64,000 nt of DNA, taken from contig NC_091480.1 in NCBI RefSeq assembly GCF_036971445.1, forward strand, positions 71,548,001-71,612,000, given 5' to 3'. Each line of letters starts with the position of its first letter. Positions within the stretch are counted from its first letter, which is position 1. Below are positions 12,599 to 57,243 of the stretch, one piece after another. The notes beneath the pieces were generated by a model. It had not been told where the DNA came from, ran no database searches, and was given only the letters and a program-made list of their open reading frames with translations. Source of the stretch: Narcine bancroftii (Eukaryota). The translations under genes were made by a program, and so were the position numbers.

Positions 12599-12837
12599 GC
12601 TGGCGGCCGCTGCTCGCTGGCAACCTGTGAAAGAACCCAGAGAAGACCCTGAACACGCAGCCTCCTTGGATCCGATCAACACACAATGGAGCCGAGATCG
12701 GCCCTTTTCCCGGGTAAATCAGGCACCGCTCTGGGACGGGACTCGGGCCGGTCGCTCTTGGCCGCACTGGTTTCCGTCGGATCTCGGCCTGACCCCGCTG
12801 TCAGATACAGGGAGCGGCGGCGGCGGCTCTCACCGCC

Positions 12838-13345
12838 CGGCTCGGCGGCCTTTCCCCTCCTCTCCCCCCCCCCCACCCCCGGGGCTCGGCGGCCTCCTCT
12901 CCCCCCCCCCCCACCCCCGGGGCTCGGCGGCCTCCTCTCCCCCCCCACCCCCGGGGCTCGGCGGCCTCCTCTCCCCCCCCCCCACCCCCGGGGCTCGGCG
13001 GCCTCCTCTCCCCCCCCCCACCCCCGGGGCTCGGCGGCCTCCTCTCCCCCCCCCCCCCCACCCCCGGGGCTCGGCGGCCTCCTCTCCCCCCACCCCCGGG
13101 GCTCGGCGGCCTCCTCTCCCCCCCCCCCCCACCCCCGGGGCTCGGCGGCCTCCTCTCCCCCCCCCACCCCCGGGGCTCGGCGGCCTCCTCTCCCCCCCCC
13201 CCACCCCCGGGGCTCGGCGGCCTCCTCTCCCCCCCCCCCACCCCCGGGGCTCGGCGGCCTCCTCTCCCCCCCCCCCACCCCCGGGGCTCGGCGGCCTCCT
13301 CCCCCCCCCCCCGGGGCTCGGCGGCCTCCTCTCCCCACCCCCGGT
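12838..13345. repeat. GC-rich minisatellite in CDC6 intron 1, ~14 copies of ccccggggctcggcggcctcctct(c)n-a (~32-42 bp unit)
   Basis: Directly visible tandem array. The core is near-identical and the C-run length varies. Confidence 0.95.
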
Positions 13346-13361
13346 TCTCTCCCGCTGATAC

Positions 13362-13500: not shown

Positions 13501-14208
13501 CAAACTCGAATCGAAATAGGATTCATCTTGAACCAGAAATGTTGAATATACAAATGCGTCCAAAGTTATCTGGAAGATTTGTTGGAAGGAGTTCTCCCCG
13601 TGTCTGCGTGGGGGGCTTCCCCGGGGGCTCCGGTTTCCTGCCGGGTGCAATTGGGCGGCATGGACTCGTGGGCCGAAAGGGCCAGTTACCGAGTTGTTTG
13701 TCTAAACTTAAATATCACATATGCCTATTTTTTATTGAATCTTCAAATAAAAAAATACTGATTAAATATATATTTTTGTGGGGAAATTATTCTATGATCG
13801 TTTTGTCTACAGTTCCTGGTTACATACTCGCAATAGGAAAATTCAGCTGTAACTGGGATCAGTTTTCAATATTCTGCAGCACTTTATAAATTGCCATAAT
13901 CCTGAGACTGGAAGCTTTAACACATTAATTAGCATCATTGAACACGTTTGGATGAGCCTTGCTTTGTTCTTCTGCAGCTAGAATTTAAAGACCAGTTAAT
14001 GAGCAAACATTTCATTTCTTATATTTCCTGGTTTTGTCAAAACTGTTAAATATCCCCATGAGTAAAACGCGAAAGTCTGCAGTGATTGAAGAAGAAATAG
14101 AATGCTGGAGAAACTCAGCAGGTCCCTTTGGTTTGTGGATTGATACTGCACATTTTTTCTAACCCTAAATCTATTTTTCCAAAGCGAGCGGCTTAATTTA
14201 AATATTCC

Positions 14209-17200
14209 TGTGGTGGTCCACCACCGGCCTACTGCAGGGGGCAACCTCTATACCTGCAGGTGTGTAAGGGGACAGGACAACACCTAGCCGGCTGCCAATC
14301 TGGGCCTGAATAGATCAAGCCCCACCCGGTCAGGGGTCAATCACCCTCCGGGATATAAGCCTGTGCCGGCCTCCCGAGGCCTCACTCAGAGTTACTGCAG
14401 CCATGGCCAGCCTGGCTCTGTGGAAGTCTTTGTGGATTAAAGCCTGTTGTACAGTCTTTACCTTGTGTGTGTCTGATTCTGGCTAACAGCGCACCACAGT
14501 TTAATCCACAAAATTTTCCCACGACTGCCATGAAAAAACTCCTGAGCACAGGGAGCCTCGAGGTCGACCCATGCCACCCGGAAGCCCAGACACGCTTCGA
14601 GATCTGGCAGCACGCAGTCGAGGAAATCATCGAGGCACATAAGGGCGACATCCTGGACTCCAATTAGAAGAGGTTGGTCCTACTCCGGTCAAAGCTGGGT
14701 TCCCGCGCCTTCCAGGTAACCAAAGGCTGCTCCACGTACAAGAGCGCAATAGACACTCTCAAGATCTTGTACAAGCCCCCCATGAATGTGGTCTGTGCAA
14801 GGTACTTCCTCAACACCCGAGCCCAGCAACCCGGGGAGTCGGCTGAGTCTTACCTGGGGCACTTGCGAGAGTTGGCCCGACCGTGTCTGGCTGAACCTGG
14901 GGTAAGTGTAGAGGAGGTCGAGAGGCTGATCCGGGACGCCTTCGTCCGAGGGCTACGCTCAAGGGTCATCCGGCAGAAGCTGCTGGAAGACATCATCTAT
15001 GCCCTAACCAGGTCTGTGGAAGTGATCCAAACCCTGGAAACAGCAGCCCTGCCTGTCGAAGACTTCGATTCCGGGTTCCCCCAGGCTTCCTCATGGCCCT
15101 CTCACAATGCAGCTGCAGCCCCAGGCTGAGATGGGGAGGAGAACGTCACTGCGGCAGGCGCCCAGCGCCCCTGTAAGTACTATGGGTCCTGGTGTGAGTC
15201 AGATCGACGATCGCGCCAAAATTGCTCAGCTAGGAACCAGTATTGTTCCCAATGCAGCAAGAAAGGCCACTTTGCAAAAGTGTGCCTCTCTAAACCTGCC
15301 GGCAGCTCAGCGGCTCTCTATGACCTCCCTACCTCCCCCGCAGACCCACCCCCCCCCCTCCATGTGCGCATGCCGGGCTGTGTCATTGTCTCCGTGACAA
15401 CTTCCGACTCCCCGACTTCGACCGCGCAACATCCGGCCCCGCCAGCAACCGTCGCAGCATGTGCTCCGAGCATCTGCACCAGTCCTCGCCGCTCGCTGAA
15501 AACTACAGCGACATCACTTCCGGCTCATGGCGTGACGTTACTTCTGGCTGACGTAACAACATCACTGCCGCCGGCTGTGATGACGTCACTTCCCCTGGTG
15601 CAGCGGACACGGCTGGGGAAGGAGGCCAGCCACGCAGCAGCTCCCTACGTGCCGCTGCCATCTTGGGCCAGGTCACGCCCGACATGGAGGGACCCCGACG
15701 ACGTTGAGAATGACGTGGTCAACACGGGCGATGATCAGGCCGCCCTACCGACGCCCCTCACGCCTCCAGGTGCCATCAGCTGCCGCACACCCCACCCAGT
15801 GACCGACGACAATGTGGTCAACACAGGCGATGACCAGGCCACCCTATCGACGCTCCCCATCCCTCCGGATAGCGATGACTCCGAGATGGTCCTGGCCGCC
15901 ACCATGCTGACCAGGGACATTCCCCACGATCTCGGGCACTCGATGATGGACATGCGAATCAACGGGCAGGTAACAAAGTGCCTGTTGGACAGTGGCAGCA
16001 CCGAGAGCTTTATTCACCCGAGCGTGGCCCAATCCCTACCACTTGCTCGATCGCCCTCGCCACCAAGGATAAGACTGTTGGTACCATCGGGTGCTGCTCA
16101 GTCGATATAACGGTGGGAGGGGAGACTTACACAGAATTCAGGCTCCTGGTCATGCCCAAACTCTGCGCACCACTCCTCCTGGGCCTGGATTTCCAGTGCC
16201 ACCTGCAGAGTGTCACCCTTGCCTTCGGGGGGGCCCCAACCTCCACTCACATTGCACAGCAGGCCAACCTACCAGCCCCGGCCAACCTGTGGTCTCTCCA
16301 CATTGCACATCACCCCACCAGCGCTCTTTACACATCTTGCGCTAGGCTGCAAGCCGATTGCCGCCAGAAGTAGGCGCTATTGCGCTGCAGACAGGGTCTT
16401 CGTCAAGGCGGAGGTGCGGCGACTCCTGGTGGAAGAAGTTATAGAGTCCAGTAACAGCCCTTGGAGAGCCCAAGTCCTGGTGGTCAAAGGGGGAAGTAAG
16501 CCAAGCCGAGGATGGACGTGGATTACAGCCAGACCATTAATCGGTACACCCAGCTGGATGCCTACCCACTGCCAAGGATCGCCGATGAGATTGTCAATGA
16601 GATTACCCGCTACCGGGTTTTCTCCACGATTGACCTGAAGTCGGCGTATTACCAAATCCCTATCCACCCGAAGGACAAGTCCTACACCGCCTTTGAGGCG
16701 AACGGGCGCCTGTACCAGTTCCGCCGGGTTCCTTTTGGGGTCATGAACGAGGTCTCCGTCTTCCAGCGGGAGATGGATCGCATGGTAGACCGGCACAAGC
16801 TGAAGGCGACGTTCCCATATCTGGATAATGTCACTATCTGCAGCCGTGACCAGCAGGACCATGATGCTAACCTGGAAAAATTCCTCCAGATGGCCGCGGA
16901 GCCGAACCTCACTTACAAGGAAAAGTGTTCAGCACCACCCGCCTCGCCATCCTGGGATACATTGTGGCCCGTGGAGTCGTCGGCCCAGATCTGGAAAGGA
17001 TGCGCCCATTAATGGAGTTACTCCTTTCCCCCCTTACCCCCCCCCCCACGCTAAAGGCCCTCCGCAGGTGCCTGGGCCTGTTCTCTTATTACTCGCAGTG
17101 GGTCCCTTGCTTCTCAGACAAGATCCGCCCACTGGCCCAAGCCACAACTTTTACCCTCCCACCTGAGGCACAGGCAGCCTTCACCCGCATCAGGCAAGAT

Positions 17201-19159
17201 ATCGTGGATGCCATGATGCAGGCTGTCCATGAGGACTCCCCCTCCAGGTGGAGAGCGATGCCTCCGAGGTAGCCCTTGCTGCTACCCTCAACCAAGGGGG
17301 GGGGCGCCCCGTCGCCTTCTTCTCCAGGACCATCCACGGCTCCGAGCTAGGGCACTCCGCCATTGCAAAGGAGGCCCAGGCGATTATGGAAGCGGTCTGC
17401 CACTGGCGCCACTACCTGACTGGCAGGAGATTCACACTCCTCACAGACCAGCGGGCCGTGGCATTCATGTTTAACACTACCCACAAGAGCAAGGTAAAGA
17501 ATTTCAAGATCCTGCGCTGGAGAGTCGAGCTGGCAACCTACAGCTACGACATCCAGTACCGCTCTGGGAAGTTTAACGACTCCCCTGATGCCCTCTCTCA
17601 CACCTGCTCGTCTATGCATGACGACAGGTTGCAGGCATTGCATGAGTTCCTCTGCCATCCGGGCGTCACCTGGTTGTACCATTTCGTTAAGTCCCGAAAT
17701 CTGCCGTACACCATCAGGGTCGTCAGGGACATGACCGAGGCCTGTCGGATCTGTGCGGAGTGTAAACCCCGTTTCTTCCGCCCACCCCAAGGCCTATGTT
17801 GTAAAGGCTACTCGGCCTTTTGAAGGTCTTGGCGTGGACTTCAAAGGGCCCCTGCCTTCCACGAACCGAAACGTCTATTTCCTCACGGTAGTGGACGAGT
17901 ACTCACGCTTCCCTTTCGCCATCCCTTGTCCGGACACCTCCATAGCCACCGTCATCAGGGCTTTGGAGCAGATATTCACCATGTTTGGCTACCCCGCCTT
18001 CATCCACAGCGACCGGGGGTCTAGGTTCATGAGCAACGAGCTACGCCAGTACTTGATGGCGAGGTGTATTGCGACCAGTCACATGACAAGCTATAACCCA
18101 AGAGGCAACGAGCAAGTGGAATGCGAGAATGGGGTGGTCTGGAAGGCAGTCCTCCTGGATCTCAGGTCAAAAGGGTGGGCTGTTGAGTTCTGGCAGGACA
18201 CCCTGCCTGAGGCGCTCCATGCCATTCGGTCACTACTGTGCACGGCTACCAATGAGACCCCTCATGAACGTCTGTTCTCATTCCCCAGGAGGTCGGCGAC
18301 TGGAATGTCACTCCCAGCATGGCTCACGTCCCCAGGACCGGTACTTCTGCATAAGCATGTAAGGACTCAAGGCTGAAGCCCTGGTGGAGCAGGTTTACCT
18401 CCTTCATGCAAACCATAACTACGCTTACATTAGGTTCGGCAGTGGCAGGGAGGACATCGTCTCAACCAGGGACCTAGCACCAGCAGGAGCACCCACCACA
18501 CCACGCTCCAACCCAGGACGACACTGACCGGGCATACATCCCTGTCTCCATGCAGCTATGGGGCACGCAGGGCCTCTTTGACTACCAGGGGCCTGCTTCA
18601 GCCTTGGGAGACGAACCTGCCCCCCCCCCCCCACCCATCCAATACAACTCGCATACGTCGGCCCTGGCCACCCCTCCGCACGGCGCCACACCAGCCACAC
18701 ACACCCCTGCTGCCAGACTCTCCAATTGCCCTCTGACCAGTGACCAGGAGCCAGTCCTATGATGGTCACTGAGACCCCGTCTCAACCAGTAAATATTGTA
18801 TGTACAAGGTGGGTGCGATTCCTTGTTACTGCCCCCCTCCCCCGGGATAATTTTAAAGAAGTGGGTGAATGTGGTGGTACACCACCGGCCTACTGCAGGG
18901 GGAAACCTCTGTACCTGCAGGAGTGTAAGGGGACAGGACAACACCTAGCCGGCTGCCAATCTGGGCCTGAATGGATCAAGCCCCACCCAGTCAGGTGTCA
19001 ATCACCTTCCGGGATATAAGCCTGCGCCGGCCTCCCGAGGCCTCACACTAAATTGTTGTAGCCACAGCCAGCCTGGCTCTGTGGAAGTCTTTGTGGATTA
19101 AAGCCTGTTGTACAGTCTTTACTTTGTGTGTGTCTGATTCTGTCGAATGGCGCACCACA
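14209..19159 (+). mobile_element. Near full-length Ty3/Gypsy (Mag-like) LTR retrotransposon, family A. LTRs 14209-14498 and 18870-19159 (290 bp each, TGTGGTG...CACCACA), PPT ~18855-18867, degenerate TSD attcc/attac.
   Basis: Two LTRs ~92% identical by manual count. gag (CCHC KKGHFAKVC), protease LLDSGS, RT YLDN, RNase H SDAS..EKEA-like, and integrase HHCC + DDE in gypsy order. Confidence 0.95.
14530..18560 (+). pseudogene. Disrupted gag-pol of the family A element
   Basis: ORF fragments 14467-14667, 14674-15129, 15280-16110, 15978-16373, 16512-17012, 16925-17272, 17248-17823 and 17753-18376, separated by stops and frameshifts. Confidence 0.9.
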
Positions 19160-19904: not shown

Positions 19905-20206
19905 TGTGGTGATACAACCACTGGACTGTCTATGACTGCCTGCGCCTGTCCACCCTCTTGCATGCATTGCCTCCTGCAGGGGGTAACCTATTGTACCTGC
20001 AGGGAGGTAACCTGGGAGACTGGCTCCACCTACTCCCTGCCAATCACCGGCCCCACATAAAGGCTCATGCTGGCCCTTGGGCAGGAGCGGAGCACACAAA
20101 GCCAGATGTGATACAGAACCTTGTATGCAAGTTTTAAGCTAATTAAAGCCTGTAATACAGCCTTTCGTTGTTTGTGCTTGTTTTATTCACACTGCAGTAC
20201 ACCACA
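19905..20206 (+). mobile_element. Solo LTR, family B, TSD CTCAT
   Basis: TGTGGTG...CACCACA termini, perfect 5-bp TSD, homologous to the LTR at 24296-24590. Confidence 0.9.
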
Positions 20207-20642
20207 CTCATCATCAGGGTTCACTAGGTCTGTAAGCTTGAATAATTTGCCCCTCTGAGCCCCCTTTAAACTTTTCCCCTCAAGTCTATGCTCCCCAATT
20301 ATAGATTCCCCTACTCAGAGAAAACACTATGACTACCAGTATTTACCTCATCTATGCCCCTTGAGATTTTATAAACCTCTCCAAGGTCACCTCTCATTCT
20401 CCTATGGTCCAGGGAAAAAAGCCCCAGCCTATCCAGTCTCTTTATTACTCAAGCCATCCTATGAATCTTTTCTCTCTCCATCTTAATGACATTCTTCCAG
20501 TATCTAGGCAACTGGAACTACACGCAATATGTATAATTATGAACAAACAGAGCTACCAATAATTGTATCTGATCATACCAATAAACCAGCACTAATGGGC
20601 ACTAATGGGCAAATGTTTGTTCAAAATATTGAAGCTAGACTA

Positions 20643-23600
20643 TGATGCACAATCAATTACACAAAGACTGAAGTTACCGTGGTTGAAGGCATTTATTTAC
20701 AAGAGATAGACAGCATCCCTGTGTTGGTCGCTCACACTGACCCAGACTCGAACTGGGGGCAGGGTTGAGGCATGACAGCCTTTATGGGGGAGAAAGGGGA
20801 GGGAGACCAGGGTCAACCAGGTAAGGTCATGACATTTACATATAACGAATATGTACAATGGTTTCACCACATTCACCTCCTCTTTTGAAAGAAAAGTCCC
20901 GGGGGGGGTGTGGTGTCAGCTGACATCATAAGTTCAGTCAGTCCGGCAGTCTCATTTGGCGTTGTGACTGGCACATCCCCATCCAGGGGCCATGGCGGTC
21001 TCTGTTGGTTCTAGCTGATCCATCTCGGTTGGCCTGGCAGGGGTACTTCACTGAGCTGGGATGCGTGTGTCAGTTGCCGGGTTGGCAGGGATGGTGGGGG
21101 TGGGGAAGTTAGGCCCCGGAGAGCTAGGGGAGGGGGGTACCTGTTGGCTGGTTGGAGGGGGGTCCACATAGTCCTGTGTGTGCCAGGTCCAGGATGGATA
21201 CTGGGTCCTCACATCTGTCTGGGAATGCCACGTAGATGTACTGTGAGTTCATGTGGAGCAGCTGGATCCTCTTGACCAGAGGGTCAGATTTATGTGTCCT
21301 CACGCGTCTGCAGAGTAGGACTGGCCCGGGGAATGTCAGCCAGGTAAGTAAGGTGGTTCCCGACACCGATCTCCTGCGGAATCTAAACAGTCTCTCATGA
21401 GGTGTCTCATTGGTGGCTGGATAGCGTGGGAGCGCCTCTGGGAGGACCTCTTGCCAGTGGGGATGGGGAGGCCCTTGGACTTTAAGACCAGTAGTACTGT
21501 CTTCCAGACCATGCCGTTCTCCTGCTCCGCCTGGCCATTCCCATTGGGGTTATAGCTGGTGGTCCAGCTAGAGGCAATATTCTTGGACAGAAAATATTGA
21601 TGTAGCTCGTTGCTCATGAAGGATGAACCCCTATCGCTGTGGACATAGTAGGGGCACCCGAAAATAGTGAACAGTTTGTTCAGAGCCTTTATGATGGTAG
21701 CTGTGGTCATATCTGGGCAGGGCATGGTGAAAGGGAACTGCGAGTACTCATCGATGATGGTGATGAAATACACGATGCGGTTCATGGAGGGCAGGGGTCC
21801 TTTGAAGTTCATCCTTAGATGTTCAAAGGACCAAGTGGCCTTGATCAGGTGTGACCAGTTGGGCTGGTAGCACAGTTTGCACTCCACACAGACCTGGCAA
21901 TTTCTGGTCAGCGACCTGATGCCTTGATGAAGTGAAAAAATGGGTGATCTCAGGGTGGCAGTGCCTGCAGGCGATCCATCTGTGCACTGGAGCACGACCC
22001 TCGAGACAGGGCATACGAGGGCTCATTGAGCTTTCCGGGCCAGTACAGTATGTCGTAATTGTAGGTGGAGAGTTCAATTCTCCACTTCAGGATTTTTGAT
22101 TTTACCCCGCTGCTGATTGTTGAACATGAAGGCGACTGCTTGTTGGTCAGTCAGCAGGGTAAAATGCTTACCGGTGAGATAATGTCTTCAGTGCCGTACC
22201 GCTTCAACGATAGCCTGGGCCTCTTTCTCAATGGAGGATTTCTCAATGGGGCCCTGGAGAGTGCGTGAAAAAAACTCTACAGGCCTGCCCGCCTGGTTAA
22301 GTGTGGCAGCCAGAGCCAAGTCCGATGCATCACTCTCCATCTGGAACAGGATGGACTCTTCCACTGCGTGCATTGCGGCCTTTGCAATGTCAGCTTTGAT
22401 CCAGTTGAATGCCTCATTGGCTTCTGCTGACAGGGGGAAGTTGGTGGCCCTGATGAGGGGTCGGGCCTTCTCCACATAGTTGGGGACCCACTGAGTGTAA
22501 GAAGAGAAAAAGTCCAGGCACCTTTTCAAGGCCTTGAGGATTGGGAGTTCTCGCAGGGGGCACATGGGGTCAGGGTCGGAGCTAATGTCTCCATTCTTCA
22601 CAACGCAGCCTAGTGTAGCCAGGCGACGTGTGCTGAAGACACACTTTTCTGTGTTATATGTCAGGTTGAGGCGTTTTGCGTGTGGAGGAATTTCTGTAGG
22701 TTTCTATCATGGTCTTGCTAGTTGTGGCCGCAGATGGTGATGTGGTTGAGGTATGGAAAAGTGGCCCACAGTCCGTGTTCGTCCACCATCTGATCCATTT
22801 CCCTCTGAAAGACTGAGACTCTATTCATGACTCCAAAAGGGACCCTTAGAAAATGGTAAAGTCAGCCATCCACCTCGAGGGCAGTATACTGGTGGTCTTC
22901 TGGATGAATTGGGAGCTGGTGATACGCAGACTTAAGGTCTAGGGTGGAGAACACCCTGTATTGTTTGATCTGGTTCATCATGTCGGCTATGCGGGGCAGG
23001 GTATATGCATCCAGTTGGGTAAACTATTGATGGTCTGGGAGTAATCTATGATCATCCACTCTTCACCACCACTTCCTGGGCACTCTGTTCTATCATCCCC
23101 TCAGTGAGGAGGCGTCTCACCTCTGACTTAATAAATGCCCTGTCCCCGGTGCTATGTCACCGACGTTTAGTGGTGAGATTGGCAAACAGGGGTGGGGGAA
23201 AGATCCGGAGTGTGAAGAGGCTGCATGATGGATGCAGGGATTGGGTTTTGGGATGATGGTTAGCTATGTGATGAGAGGAGGACAGGCGGTTTAAAAACTG
23301 CTCGTTACAGACCATGAGGGGAGGGTGGGGCCCATCGTGCTCCATGGTGATGCTCTTCATGTTACACTGGAAGTCTAATCCAGTAGGATAGAGGCACAGA
23401 GCTGTGGCAGTATGAGGAGTGTAAAGTCCCGGTATACTATGCCCTGGACAGTCAGTGTTACCGTACAACTGCCACGAATCTCTGCCGAGTGAAATTTGGA
23501 TGCCATGGCATGCATCGTGGCATTGTCCTGTCTGATGTGGGCGAAGGCCACTTGTGCCTCCATGGGGAGGTGAAAGGTGGTGGCTGGGCCAATGGGCAGA

Positions 23601-24590
23601 CCTTGTCTGAGAACTAGGGGACCCACTGGAGTAGTAAGAGAAGAGCCCTAGGCACCTGCGGAGGGCCTTGAGCATGTGGGGGAGGAGCAGTTCCATCAGG
23701 GGGCACATGTGTTTGAGATCTGGACCGATGACACCATGTTCCACGACGCACTCAGGGATAGCAAGGTGGGTGGTGCTGAACACGCACTTCTCCCTATTGT
23801 AGATGAAATTTAATGCCTCTGCCGTCTGGAGGAACTTCTCCAGGTTGGCATCATGGTCCTGCTGATCATGGCCGCAGATGGTGACATTGTTCAGGTAGGG
23901 GAAGGTCACTCTCAGGTTATGTTGGTCTACCCTACGATCCATCTCCCTCTGGAACACAGAGACTCCATTTGTGACCCCAAAAGGGACCTGGCGGAACTGG
24001 TAAAGGCGCATGTCAGTCTTGAAGGCAGTATATGGCTTAACCGTGGCCTGGATGGGGAGCTGGTGATAGGCCGACTTTGAGTCAATGGTGGAAAACACCC
24101 TGTCCTGGGCTATCTCGTTGACTATGTCAGCGATGCGGGGCAGTGGGTAGGCGCCCAGCCTTAGTGCGAATAATTGCCCCGACTGAAGGCTTCCAGATCT
24201 CGGAGGGCTGGAGCTTCCAGACGTTGGTGGTCGATATCCAGTTTTTCTATGCTGAGAAACTTCTCCATGGTTCTTTAAAATTAAGCTAATTAAATTGTGA
24301 TGCATTGCAGTGCAAACAAACAAGCTTAAACCACGAAGGCTGTACTACAGCCTTTAATTAGTTTAAAACTTGCACACAAGGTTCAGTATCCCTTCTGGCT
24401 CTATGTGCTCTACTGCCTACATGAGAGCCAGCATGAGCCTTTATATGGGGCCAATGATTGGCAGGGTAGATGGAGCCAGTTTCCTAGGTTATCTCCTTGC
24501 AGGTACAATGGGTTTCCCCCTGCAGTAGGCAGTGCGGAAGTGTGGACAGGTGCAGGCAGTCACAGACAGTTCAGTGGTTGTATCACCACA
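20643..24590 (-). mobile_element. Chimeric Gypsy (Mag-like) relic. Family B 5' LTR (24296-24590), gag stub and RT (~24160-23510), fused to family C PR-RT-RH-INT (~23505-21150), PPT and family C 3' LTR (20643-20871).
   Basis: ORFs 23157..24323, 23375..23626, 22188..22601 and 21336..21995. Two RT cores. The terminal LTRs are non-homologous and there is no TSD. Confidence 0.85.
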
Positions 24591-24744
24591 CACAAGGAAT
24601 AGCTTATTTCAAGCAATTATCCCAATCTTTAATCCCAAATTGACCAATTTAGCTCGAGTAAATGAGCATGTTTCACCATCATGCCACATCTGAATCCTGA
24701 TCTGAATTATCATTTAATATAACTTTGCACTTTCTATTAGTTCT

Positions 24745-56174: not shown

Positions 56175-57243
56175 AGTGGCCACAGATGGTGACATTGTCG
56201 AGGTATGGGAAAGTGGCCCGCAGTCTGTGTTCATCCACCATCCGATCCAGTTCCTTCTGAAAGACAAACTCCATTCGTGACTCCAAAGGGACCCTCAGGA
56301 AATGGTAAAGAGGCCATCCCCCTCGAAGATGGTATATTCCCAAGATGGCAGCCCTCGTGTTCCCCATGAGGTGGCTGCCTGTTTGCTGGAGAACGATTCA
56401 GTGTTGTGGACGGCCACCTCTAGAGTGTTCACTAGTTCAATGGTTTGAGTCGGCTCAGTTGTCTCTGTTCGAGTAGCCTCTGCCTCACATAGTCGGAGCA
56501 GACGCCTGTGTTACAGGCGTCTCTGATCAGCAGCTGTGTGTGCTGTTCTGCACCCACAGCCTGGCAGTTACAGTACCTTGCGAGCTCCTGCAGGGCCCTG
56601 ATAACGTCATTGAAGGTTTCCCCAGGTCGCTGCCTGCGCGAGTGGAGTGTGTGCCACACGTAGACCTCATTCACCTGGACTTTATACTGGTCCTTCAGGA
56701 TGTCCATGGGATCTCTGTACGTCTGGCACTCCTGGACCATCTGGTAGACCCGGTGCCCGATGTATAAGAATAGCAAATGGATCTTGTCCTCGTCGACCTG
56801 GATCGCAGCTGTGGAAGCTGTGAGGAACTTTTCGAAACAGTGGCTCAAGAGTGCGAACTTGTCGGCTGCCTCATGTTCTCTGGGTCAATTTCCAGGCGAT
56901 CCAACTTCATGTACTTGTTCATGTTCCGAAAAAAATTTTGCAAATAAAATTGATGTGCAATCAATTGCACAAAGACTGAAGTTGCCAAGACTGAAGGCTT
57001 TTATTTACAAGAGATGGTCAGCATCCCTGTGTTGGTCGTTCACACTGACCTGGACTCGAACTGGGGGCGGGCTTGTGGTATGACAGGCTTTATGGAGAAG
57101 AAAGGGGAAGGAGTCACGAGCTGGCCAGTGAGAGCAGGGTACAATAGTGGTTTCACCACTTTCACCCCCTCGTTTAAAAGAAAGTCCCGAGGGGTGTGGT
57201 GTGTTCAGCCAACCCTCAGATGAGTGATAGTGGTTTCACAACA
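56175..57243 (-). mobile_element. Family C Gypsy relic: LTR stub (57243), 3' UTR/PPT (57161-57215), LTR (56951-57160), gag (~56920-56430) and RT fragment (~56330-56175)
   Basis: LTR and 3' UTR homologous to 20643-20920. ORFs 56432..56848 (gag) and 56173..56367 (TFPYLDNVTICGH). Confidence 0.88.

Follow-up and report, generated by a model that had tools for sequence, protein, structure and literature searches.

A clade of animal Ty3/Gypsy elements in which the primer-binding site pairs with the element's own LTR, very probably for self-priming

The window (the whole 64,000-nt stretch of Narcine bancroftii contig NC_091480.1 that was analyzed) contains a broken Ty3/Gypsy element of 4951 nt (~4.95 kb), here called element A, whose two LTRs are identical at 267 of 290 positions. 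The Ty3/Gypsy assignment follows from LTRs with TG...CA ends, a polypurine tract, a target duplication (the flanks ATTCC and ATTAC match at 4 of 5 positions of a 5-bp duplication), and the order protease, reverse transcriptase (RT), RNase H, integrase. The closest named proteins to the element A products, with 71 to 75% identity, belong to rays and sharks. No chromodomain family was detected in the open reading frames of the window. The features used below are the following.

14209..14498, plus strand: 5′ LTR of element A, 290 nt, TG...CA ends
14354..14359, plus strand: TATA-like box TATAAG, present with at most one mismatch in 29/30 copies
14381..14386, plus strand: initiator-like motif, with transcription predicted to start at A 14384; a motif lies at TATA+28 to +34 in 29/29 copies (2.4 expected)
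14429..14441, plus strand: arm, predicted 3′ end of the self-primer; its terminal ATTAAA is at 14436-14441
14442..14456, plus strand: position immediately 3′ of the arm (cut predicted at 14441/14442) and a short hairpin, imperfect in family A, with a CTGT/ACAG core
14481..14484, plus strand: GGCT, complement of AGCC at 14441-14444; used as the switch point by 14 rearranged copies
14499, plus strand: one-base spacer between LTR end and primer-binding site (PBS); G here, A in most copies
14500..14512, plus strand: PBS, complementary to the arm and pairing with 14429-14441
14530..18500 (end approximate), plus strand: broken gag-pol with stops and frameshifts; gag with a cysteine knuckle region, protease, RT (YLDN), RNase H, and integrase; chromodomain absent
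18853..18869, plus strand: polypurine tract
18870..19159, plus strand: 3′ LTR, which holds the arm and is not followed by a PBS
24282..24366, minus strand: family C junction; arm 24366-24353, LTR end 24296, PBS 24294-24282
56937..57011, minus strand: family B junction; arm 57011-56999, LTR end 56951, PBS 56949-56937

Other repeats lie near these features. A GC-rich tandem repeat (12816-13359; unit of ~37 nt, at least 13 copies) is located 850 nt upstream of element A, and a family C solo LTR occupies 19907-20207 on the plus strand. The minus strand of 20643-24591 carries a composite element: its 3′ LTR is of family B, its 5′ LTR is of family C, and its two RT stretches are separated by 1144 nt. 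The gag that follows the 5′ LTR is deleted past ~20 nt.

The arm at 14429-14441 (TTTGTGGATTAAA) and the PBS at 14500-14512 (TTTAATCCACAAA) are exact 13-nt reverse complements 58 nt apart, and the PBS starts one base past the 5′ LTR, exactly as the sequence-only reading of this DNA had described. Imperfect pairing reaches 20 nt at 85%. When the last 150 LTR bases were shuffled 2000 times, the 13/14 pairs observed were never reached. Folding of the whole region is unremarkable (z of -1.05); the pairing signal resides in the register and the specificity, not in folding energy. Families B and C, for which the same geometry with other sequences had been noted, do show it, with 12/14 and 13/14 pairs, respectively. 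The tRNA-type TGG is also missing, as that reading had it: across 120 loci, no TGG occurs in the 6 nt next to the LTR end. A PBS match to a cellular tRNA had been named as possible evidence against the idea, and among 27 host tRNA genes, which cover only about ten isotypes, the longest match was 3 to 6 nt. An Rfam covariance-model search of 14100-14700 gave no match at E up to 1. A ribozyme at the junction was considered and rejected on the basis of that result and of a conserved core limited to AAA-RCC...GGY.

The pairing is maintained among copies in the host genome. The 3.3-Gb genome contains 991 exact copies of the 20-mer that spans the LTR end, the spacer A, and the PBS, which means at least 991 such junctions; the spacer itself is A in 29/30 family A copies, compared to G in the window copy. 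At least 11 of 13 pairs are kept in 30/30, 27/30, and 25/30 loci of families A, B, and C, respectively, all of them picked by similarity to a query containing both arms. Loci picked independently of the arm pair alike, with 28/30 gag-selected loci and 28/30 loci selected by LTR end and PBS reaching at least 11/13. An example of compensation is a family B site at which C:G was found 23 times, T:A 9 times, T:G 5 times, and C:A not at all (n = 37, counted by eye; Fisher P = 1.6 × 10⁻⁵). In a separate 29-copy sample of family B, C:A was present in 2. Tolerance of U-G and rarity of C-A would fit pairing in the sense RNA. The switch of this pair is linked to a neighboring subfamily marker and may represent a single event; the tree of family-B copies is star-like and does not settle the number of independent switches.

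Relatives were collected as 94 loci from metagenomes and genome bins, the foreign loci being animal-type contigs within metagenomes and bacterial bins. LTR pairs were examined in 54 of them and pairing in the 28 that reach the gag start. An uninterrupted run of at least 13 pairs was found in 19 of the 28; by eye, six others pair with mismatches, one is arm-deleted, one is rearranged, and one is unclear. For comparison between families, 16 representatives were used, 3 from the window and 13 from other animal-type contigs, some of which are close kin (L137, L139, and L140). In 14 of the 16, no other LTR matches the PBS as well as its own (mean, 12.7 versus 9.3 of 14 pairs), and the complementarity is kept across families, as anticipated. 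The two misses are L154, where the 14-nt window is clipped by the contig edge (13/13 otherwise), and L161, which has a bulge. The register is constant: CA, one base, then a PBS starting with TTT, and an arm ending in AAA followed by RCC, with a loop of 21 to 66 nt. Perfect complementarity rarely exceeds 13 to 19 nt. Three distant Gypsy controls in the same set carry TGG sites, and the two that were scored reach 6/14 and 8/14. In a quick RT tree with local outgroups only, the two TGG controls that could be placed fell outside the group, which has a support of 80. The relatives have 5-bp target duplications (by eye), and many of their gags have two CCHC knuckles; a chromodomain was found in none of 20 polyproteins at E up to 0.1. 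A search of viral contigs yielded no relatives. Named hosts of related proteins are Hypanus, Scyliorhinus, Mobula, Narcine, Oculina, Xenia, Acropora, Porites, Paramuricea, Ischnura, and Oratosquilla, a list that concerns proteins only, the LTR geometry having been read elsewhere. The loci L201 to L214 are whole animal-type Gypsy elements in bacterial genome bins, i.e., host contamination.

The position of the arm relative to the poly(A) signal is less uniform than the three window families suggest. The sequence-only reading had the arm coincide with the poly(A) hexamer, and this holds for A, B, and C. As a general rule it fails: AATAAA or ATTAAA terminates the arm in 10 of the 16 families, the arms of the others having GTTAAA, TTTAAA, or a degenerate version, and in L137, L140, and L204 a canonical hexamer sits apart from the arm, within the loop. 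It is therefore better to say that the PBS pairs with an R-region arm ending in WTAAA than with the element's own poly(A) signal.

Directly after the arm, a stem of at least 4 pairs begins at the first base (+1) in 11/16 families compared to 1.5 expected, closed by a G-C, A-U, or G-U pair. Against shuffles preserving the first three bases, the summed stem length was 61 and the null maximum 46. The +1 hairpin covaries among families and accounts for the conserved RCC. It is not perfect in 5/16 families, including family A, and a tRNA-primed control, L214, likewise carries AATAAA-GCC. Predicted folds consist of a central duplex and a local hairpin at +1, sometimes with a second hairpin at the LTR end. 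Such a second predicted hairpin, resembling a U5-IR stem, is often found at or near the LTR end beside the PBS (14464-14498 in the window; also families B and C, L139, and L140).

Promoter motifs would place the arm well inside the transcript. A TATA-like box had been described at 14353-14358; the box is present, with TATAAG at 14354-14359. Boxes of this type lie 85 to 96 nt upstream of the arm end in 29/30, 26/29, and 27/28 copies of families A, B, and C, respectively. The initiator consensus is BBCABW, and initiator-like motifs follow at TATA+28 to +34 in 29/29, 22/26, and 10/27 copies (expected, 2.4, 2.9, and 2.5). The predicted distances from start to arm end are 58 nt for A, 64 nt for B, and about 62 nt for C. 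A TATA hexamer 35 to 50 nt upstream of the arm end, the Tf1-like position, was found in none of 87 copies. Copies of one family are not independent, and these promoter counts are effectively three related observations, not 87. The motifs agree with the earlier suggestion of a start site well upstream of the arm. By eye, a clear TATA is missing from most invertebrate families. In several invertebrate elements (L161, L188, L136, and L204), an AG-terminated pyrimidine tract closely precedes the arm or lies within it and resembles a 3′ splice acceptor or a TCT-type start.

Rearranged copies provide a different kind of evidence. In these, the upstream LTR and arm run straight into T and the inverted LTR end, which is the sequence of a primer extended on the PBS. 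The extension junction gave 61 matches within one mismatch, compared to 0 for a reversed-pattern control, and also occurs twice in family C and three times in family B. Fifty-eight loci were analyzed, and the three further matches sit in one tandem array. At L348 (G000:C5:368631766-368632060) there is a tandem array with a 90-nt unit that consists of arm context and inverted LTR end. Eleven of the 58 had inverted runs shorter than 16 nt and were dropped as plain deletions or ambiguous. L358 was considered as a PBS converted by a long primer and rejected as a normal junction, since two bases lean that way and one does not. The 46 copies retained comprise 8 of class 1, 16 of class 2, and 22 of class 3 and others.

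Class 1 copies are palindromic units in which the LTR is followed by A and then by inverted nt 233 to 1. Six of the 8 have target duplications (4 to 5 of 5 positions) directly at both U3 ends; of the remainder, one is joined to polypurine tract and internal DNA and one has an ill-defined end. Such units are unlikely to come from rearrangement of an integrated copy, and therefore the arm/PBS pairing was used during reverse transcription, before integration. Fold-back of plus-strand strong-stop DNA is the most direct route to them; it shows that the spacer and PBS were copied past the LTR end but does not identify the primer source. L305, L309, L314, L330, L331, and L347 are ~520-bp LTR-only palindromes that end in U3 on both sides, have terminal inverted repeats, and are flanked by a 5-bp target duplication; units of this kind would be misannotated as MITE or foldback elements.

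In class 2, a templated insertion follows the arm and returns at nt 232 to 237, in 14 copies via AGCC and in two with a departure near nt 250; all 13 scorable copies have target duplications. This class fits fold-back of a minus-strand strong-stop DNA ending at nt 234 and copying its own primer, or a plus-strand round trip. In class 3 and others, the inverted run exits at LTR nt 229 to 236 in 8 of 14 exits into element DNA and in 10 of 22 overall (P = 3 × 10⁻⁴ and 6 × 10⁻⁴, respectively, under the narrowest null), a window that was chosen post hoc, with microhomology blurring the exits. No exit in class 3 and others falls at the predicted start. The clustering is most simply explained by a template that ends at nt 234 (window 14442); stalling at a re-formed DNA hairpin could be the cause instead. 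Target duplications do not date classes 2 and 3. Dozens of rearranged copies break at the 3′ edge of the arm, where the cut would likely fall. The rearranged classes interleave with normal copies in an LTR tree that is star-like and poorly resolved, and the tree does not settle the number of independent events. A distant relative (L153:3425-3495) has a 5′ LTR in which the arm-PBS loop stands in reverse orientation; from there the sequence switches to the RT gene across 9 nt of microhomology, which is the structure of class 3. In L313, L311, and L308, the LTR start carries a tandemly repeated 46-nt segment (nt 12-58), repeated ~13 times in L313.

Self-priming of the Tf1 type is, as such, the best reading of these data and is highly likely. 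In the proposed mechanism, transcription would start ~58 nt upstream of the arm end, at 14384, and the arm would loop onto the PBS, with the short hairpin, which begins immediately 3′ of the arm, stacking on the arm-PBS duplex. A nuclease, presumably the RNase H of the element as in Tf1, would then cut at 14441/14442, and the capped 5′ fragment, with its last 13 nt paired, would prime minus-strand DNA across the 58-nt loop. The minus-strand DNA would jump to the 3′ R region via the stretch that separates the cut from the poly(A) site; a cut at or before the hexamer end would leave some R sequence for this first strand jump. Plus-strand synthesis would later copy the primer end and thereby renew the PBS from the arm, which would keep arm and PBS in step. 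Where the arm contains the hexamer, masking of the 5′ poly(A) signal may come as a side benefit. We lean toward this complete scheme, in which the 5′ LTR supplies a long primer, at a lower level of confidence than self-priming itself. Of the two options that the sequence-only reading had offered, the first, self-priming that follows cleavage immediately downstream of the hexamer, draws support from the fixed register, the family-specific complementarity, the U-G-tolerant compensatory site, and the rearranged copies breaking at that edge.

The long primer has a cost, namely that a 58-nt primer requires plus-strand synthesis to stop after ~13 nt or leaves an unpaired tail. The short span of perfect complementarity, rarely over 13 to 19 nt and ending abruptly, fits a short or doubly cut primer better, and a second cut or a second start would solve the plus-strand limit. 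The main rival is accordingly the exact Tf1 scheme, in which the transcript starts at or is trimmed to the first base of the arm, the primer is ~13 nt, and the TATA and initiator drive another transcript or none. Such a short primer would solve the second strand transfer. Alternative start sites are reported for Tf2 (PMC5341516), many arms begin within a pyrimidine run (by eye), and the rearranged copy L364 re-enters the LTR near nt 221. Against it stand the TATA and initiator positions in families A, B, and C, which put the start 58 to 64 nt upstream of the arm end, and the lack of any Tf1-like TATA position in the 87 copies; we consider this scheme unlikely. If instead the primer came from the arm copy at the 3′ end of the RNA, trimmed or cut after the hexamer, in cis or on a second packaged RNA, the template could start at 14442 and the hexamer would lie in U3. 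The exits at nt 229 to 236 would then need no cut in the 5′ region, the seamless run from arm to LTR nt 1 in at least 40/47 rearranged loci would be explained, and the 5′ poly(A) problem would disappear. However, no promoter motif suits a start at 14442 whereas one suits 14384, a primer of this origin would probably take up the R region on which the strand jump must land, and plus-strand synthesis would be expected to continue into the whole genome, which makes this source improbable.

The remaining explanations take the pairing out of priming. The second option of the sequence-only reading was a hairpin that forms at the 5′ LTR and masks its poly(A) signal; in this form the duplex would only hide the signal in the nascent RNA, as in HIV-1, and some host RNA would prime. 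It is consistent with a canonical hexamer ending the arm in 10/16 families, with a partner strand that is present solely after the 5′ LTR, and with the GU-rich tract that follows (14464-14475). As a general function masking does not stand, because 6/16 families lack a canonical hexamer in the arm and three have one in the loop, and without a host RNA it would leave the element primerless. In addition, a fixed one-base distance from the LTR end would be unnecessary for masking, a host primer would be faced with 16 different PBS sequences to match, and the palindromic integrated units show the pairing used in reverse transcription. Masking is at most secondary, and as the sole role of the duplex it is quite improbable. 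Alternatively, a tRNA half or fragment could prime, with the LTR match being incidental. Half-tRNA priming is described in Copia lineages (PMC6317226), and the tRNA sample was limited to the 27 genes. Since the longest match to these was 3 to 6 nt and the PBS of every family tracks its own LTR, we regard a tRNA fragment as a most improbable primer. Self-priming thus remains the preferred reading.

To our knowledge, self-priming has been proven only in fission-yeast Tf1 and is usually taken as a mark of Tf1/sushi chromoviruses. In Tf1 and Tf2 of Schizosaccharomyces pombe, in Tj1, and in Tf1/sushi chromoviruses, the PBS beside the 5′ LTR is likewise complementary to the element's own LTR, with no tRNA, and the cut proposed here at the duplex edge is analogous to the one that frees the Tf1 primer. 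In Tf1, an RNase H cut between bases 11 and 12 is described as releasing the primer (PMC7175516, PMC10085805), and priming is reported to need a three-duplex structure (PMC10085805). There are also differences. The Tf1 primer is the first 11 nt of the transcript, whereas the arm here is predicted to lie ~45 nt inside it and ends in WTAAA; Tf1 forms a three-duplex pretzel, whereas here a local hairpin is predicted at the cut. Tf1/sushi elements have a chromodomain at the integrase C terminus, which the 20 polyproteins and the window lack, and the present clade has two CCHC knuckles and a mostly YLDN RT. Because the chromodomain search came out negative, the clade was not filed in Tf1/sushi. The pairing is real and clade-wide, and very probably serves self-priming with base-level predictions unlike those for Tf1.

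A double CCHC gag is known in the Mag lineage. The Mag elements in the Culex table of PMC3286476 are also 4.5 to 5 kb long, with short LTRs, mostly 5-bp target duplications, and no chromodomain noted there; their PBS is complementary to tRNA-Leu, -Ser, or -Arg, and no such PBS is found here. The earlier description of the elements as Mag-like without a chromodomain is thus right about the chromodomain and about anatomy, and the Culex elements differ in having a tRNA PBS. Self-priming has likewise been predicted from sequence for the plant TAR Copia elements (Houba, Osr-1) and for Tcn1, according to PMC6317226; these have Copia domain order or are chromoviral, with plant hosts, unlike the element A clade. 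A variable PBS is reported for Saci2-like cestode elements in PMC12471100. The hexamer sequestering proposed above resembles that of the HIV-1 poly(A) hairpin, with the difference that the partner strand here is the PBS. In HIV-1, the 5′ R hexamer is sequestered in a hairpin that is local and present at both ends, and a tRNA primes. No report of self-priming in a non-chromoviral animal Gypsy clade was found in the literature searched, to which subscription journals and Repbase did not belong. In Repbase, certain Gypsy families of fish and marine invertebrates are reportedly annotated as self-primed, which would make the present finding less novel.

If the reading is correct, a large non-chromoviral animal clade present in sharks and rays, corals, a damselfly, and a mantis shrimp self-primes, which would imply repeated origins of the mechanism and an escape from control by tRNA supply and by 3′ tRNA fragments. 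For annotators, PBS variation in such families would not mean tRNA switching. The positions of the start, the cut, and the junction hairpin are each predicted to the base, and the rearranged copies offer a genome-only readout of priming chemistry for unculturable elements. The most detailed combination is that a widespread animal Gypsy clade outside the chromoviruses independently evolved self-priming of a kind unlike that of Tf1, with a ~60-nt capped primer released by cleavage where two internal helices meet, immediately 3′ of the poly(A) hexamer, that one duplex both primes and silences 5′ poly(A), and that dozens of mis-primed intermediates map the cut within a few bases. This combination is tentative, and we hold it to be possible rather than probable.

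The RT of these elements has an unusual catalytic motif (window 16818-16829). Among 120 proteins (P0001 to P0120), it is of the YLDN type, with the second Asp changed to Asn, in 109, has DD in 9, and was not found in 2. The corresponding change of the second Asp to Asn is crippling in HIV RT, yet some YLDN elements have LTRs that are 99 to 100% identical. No mention of YLDN together with "reverse transcriptase" was found in the literature searched, including searchable supplements. The motif is not tied to the mode of priming, because YLDD members such as L131 self-pair too.
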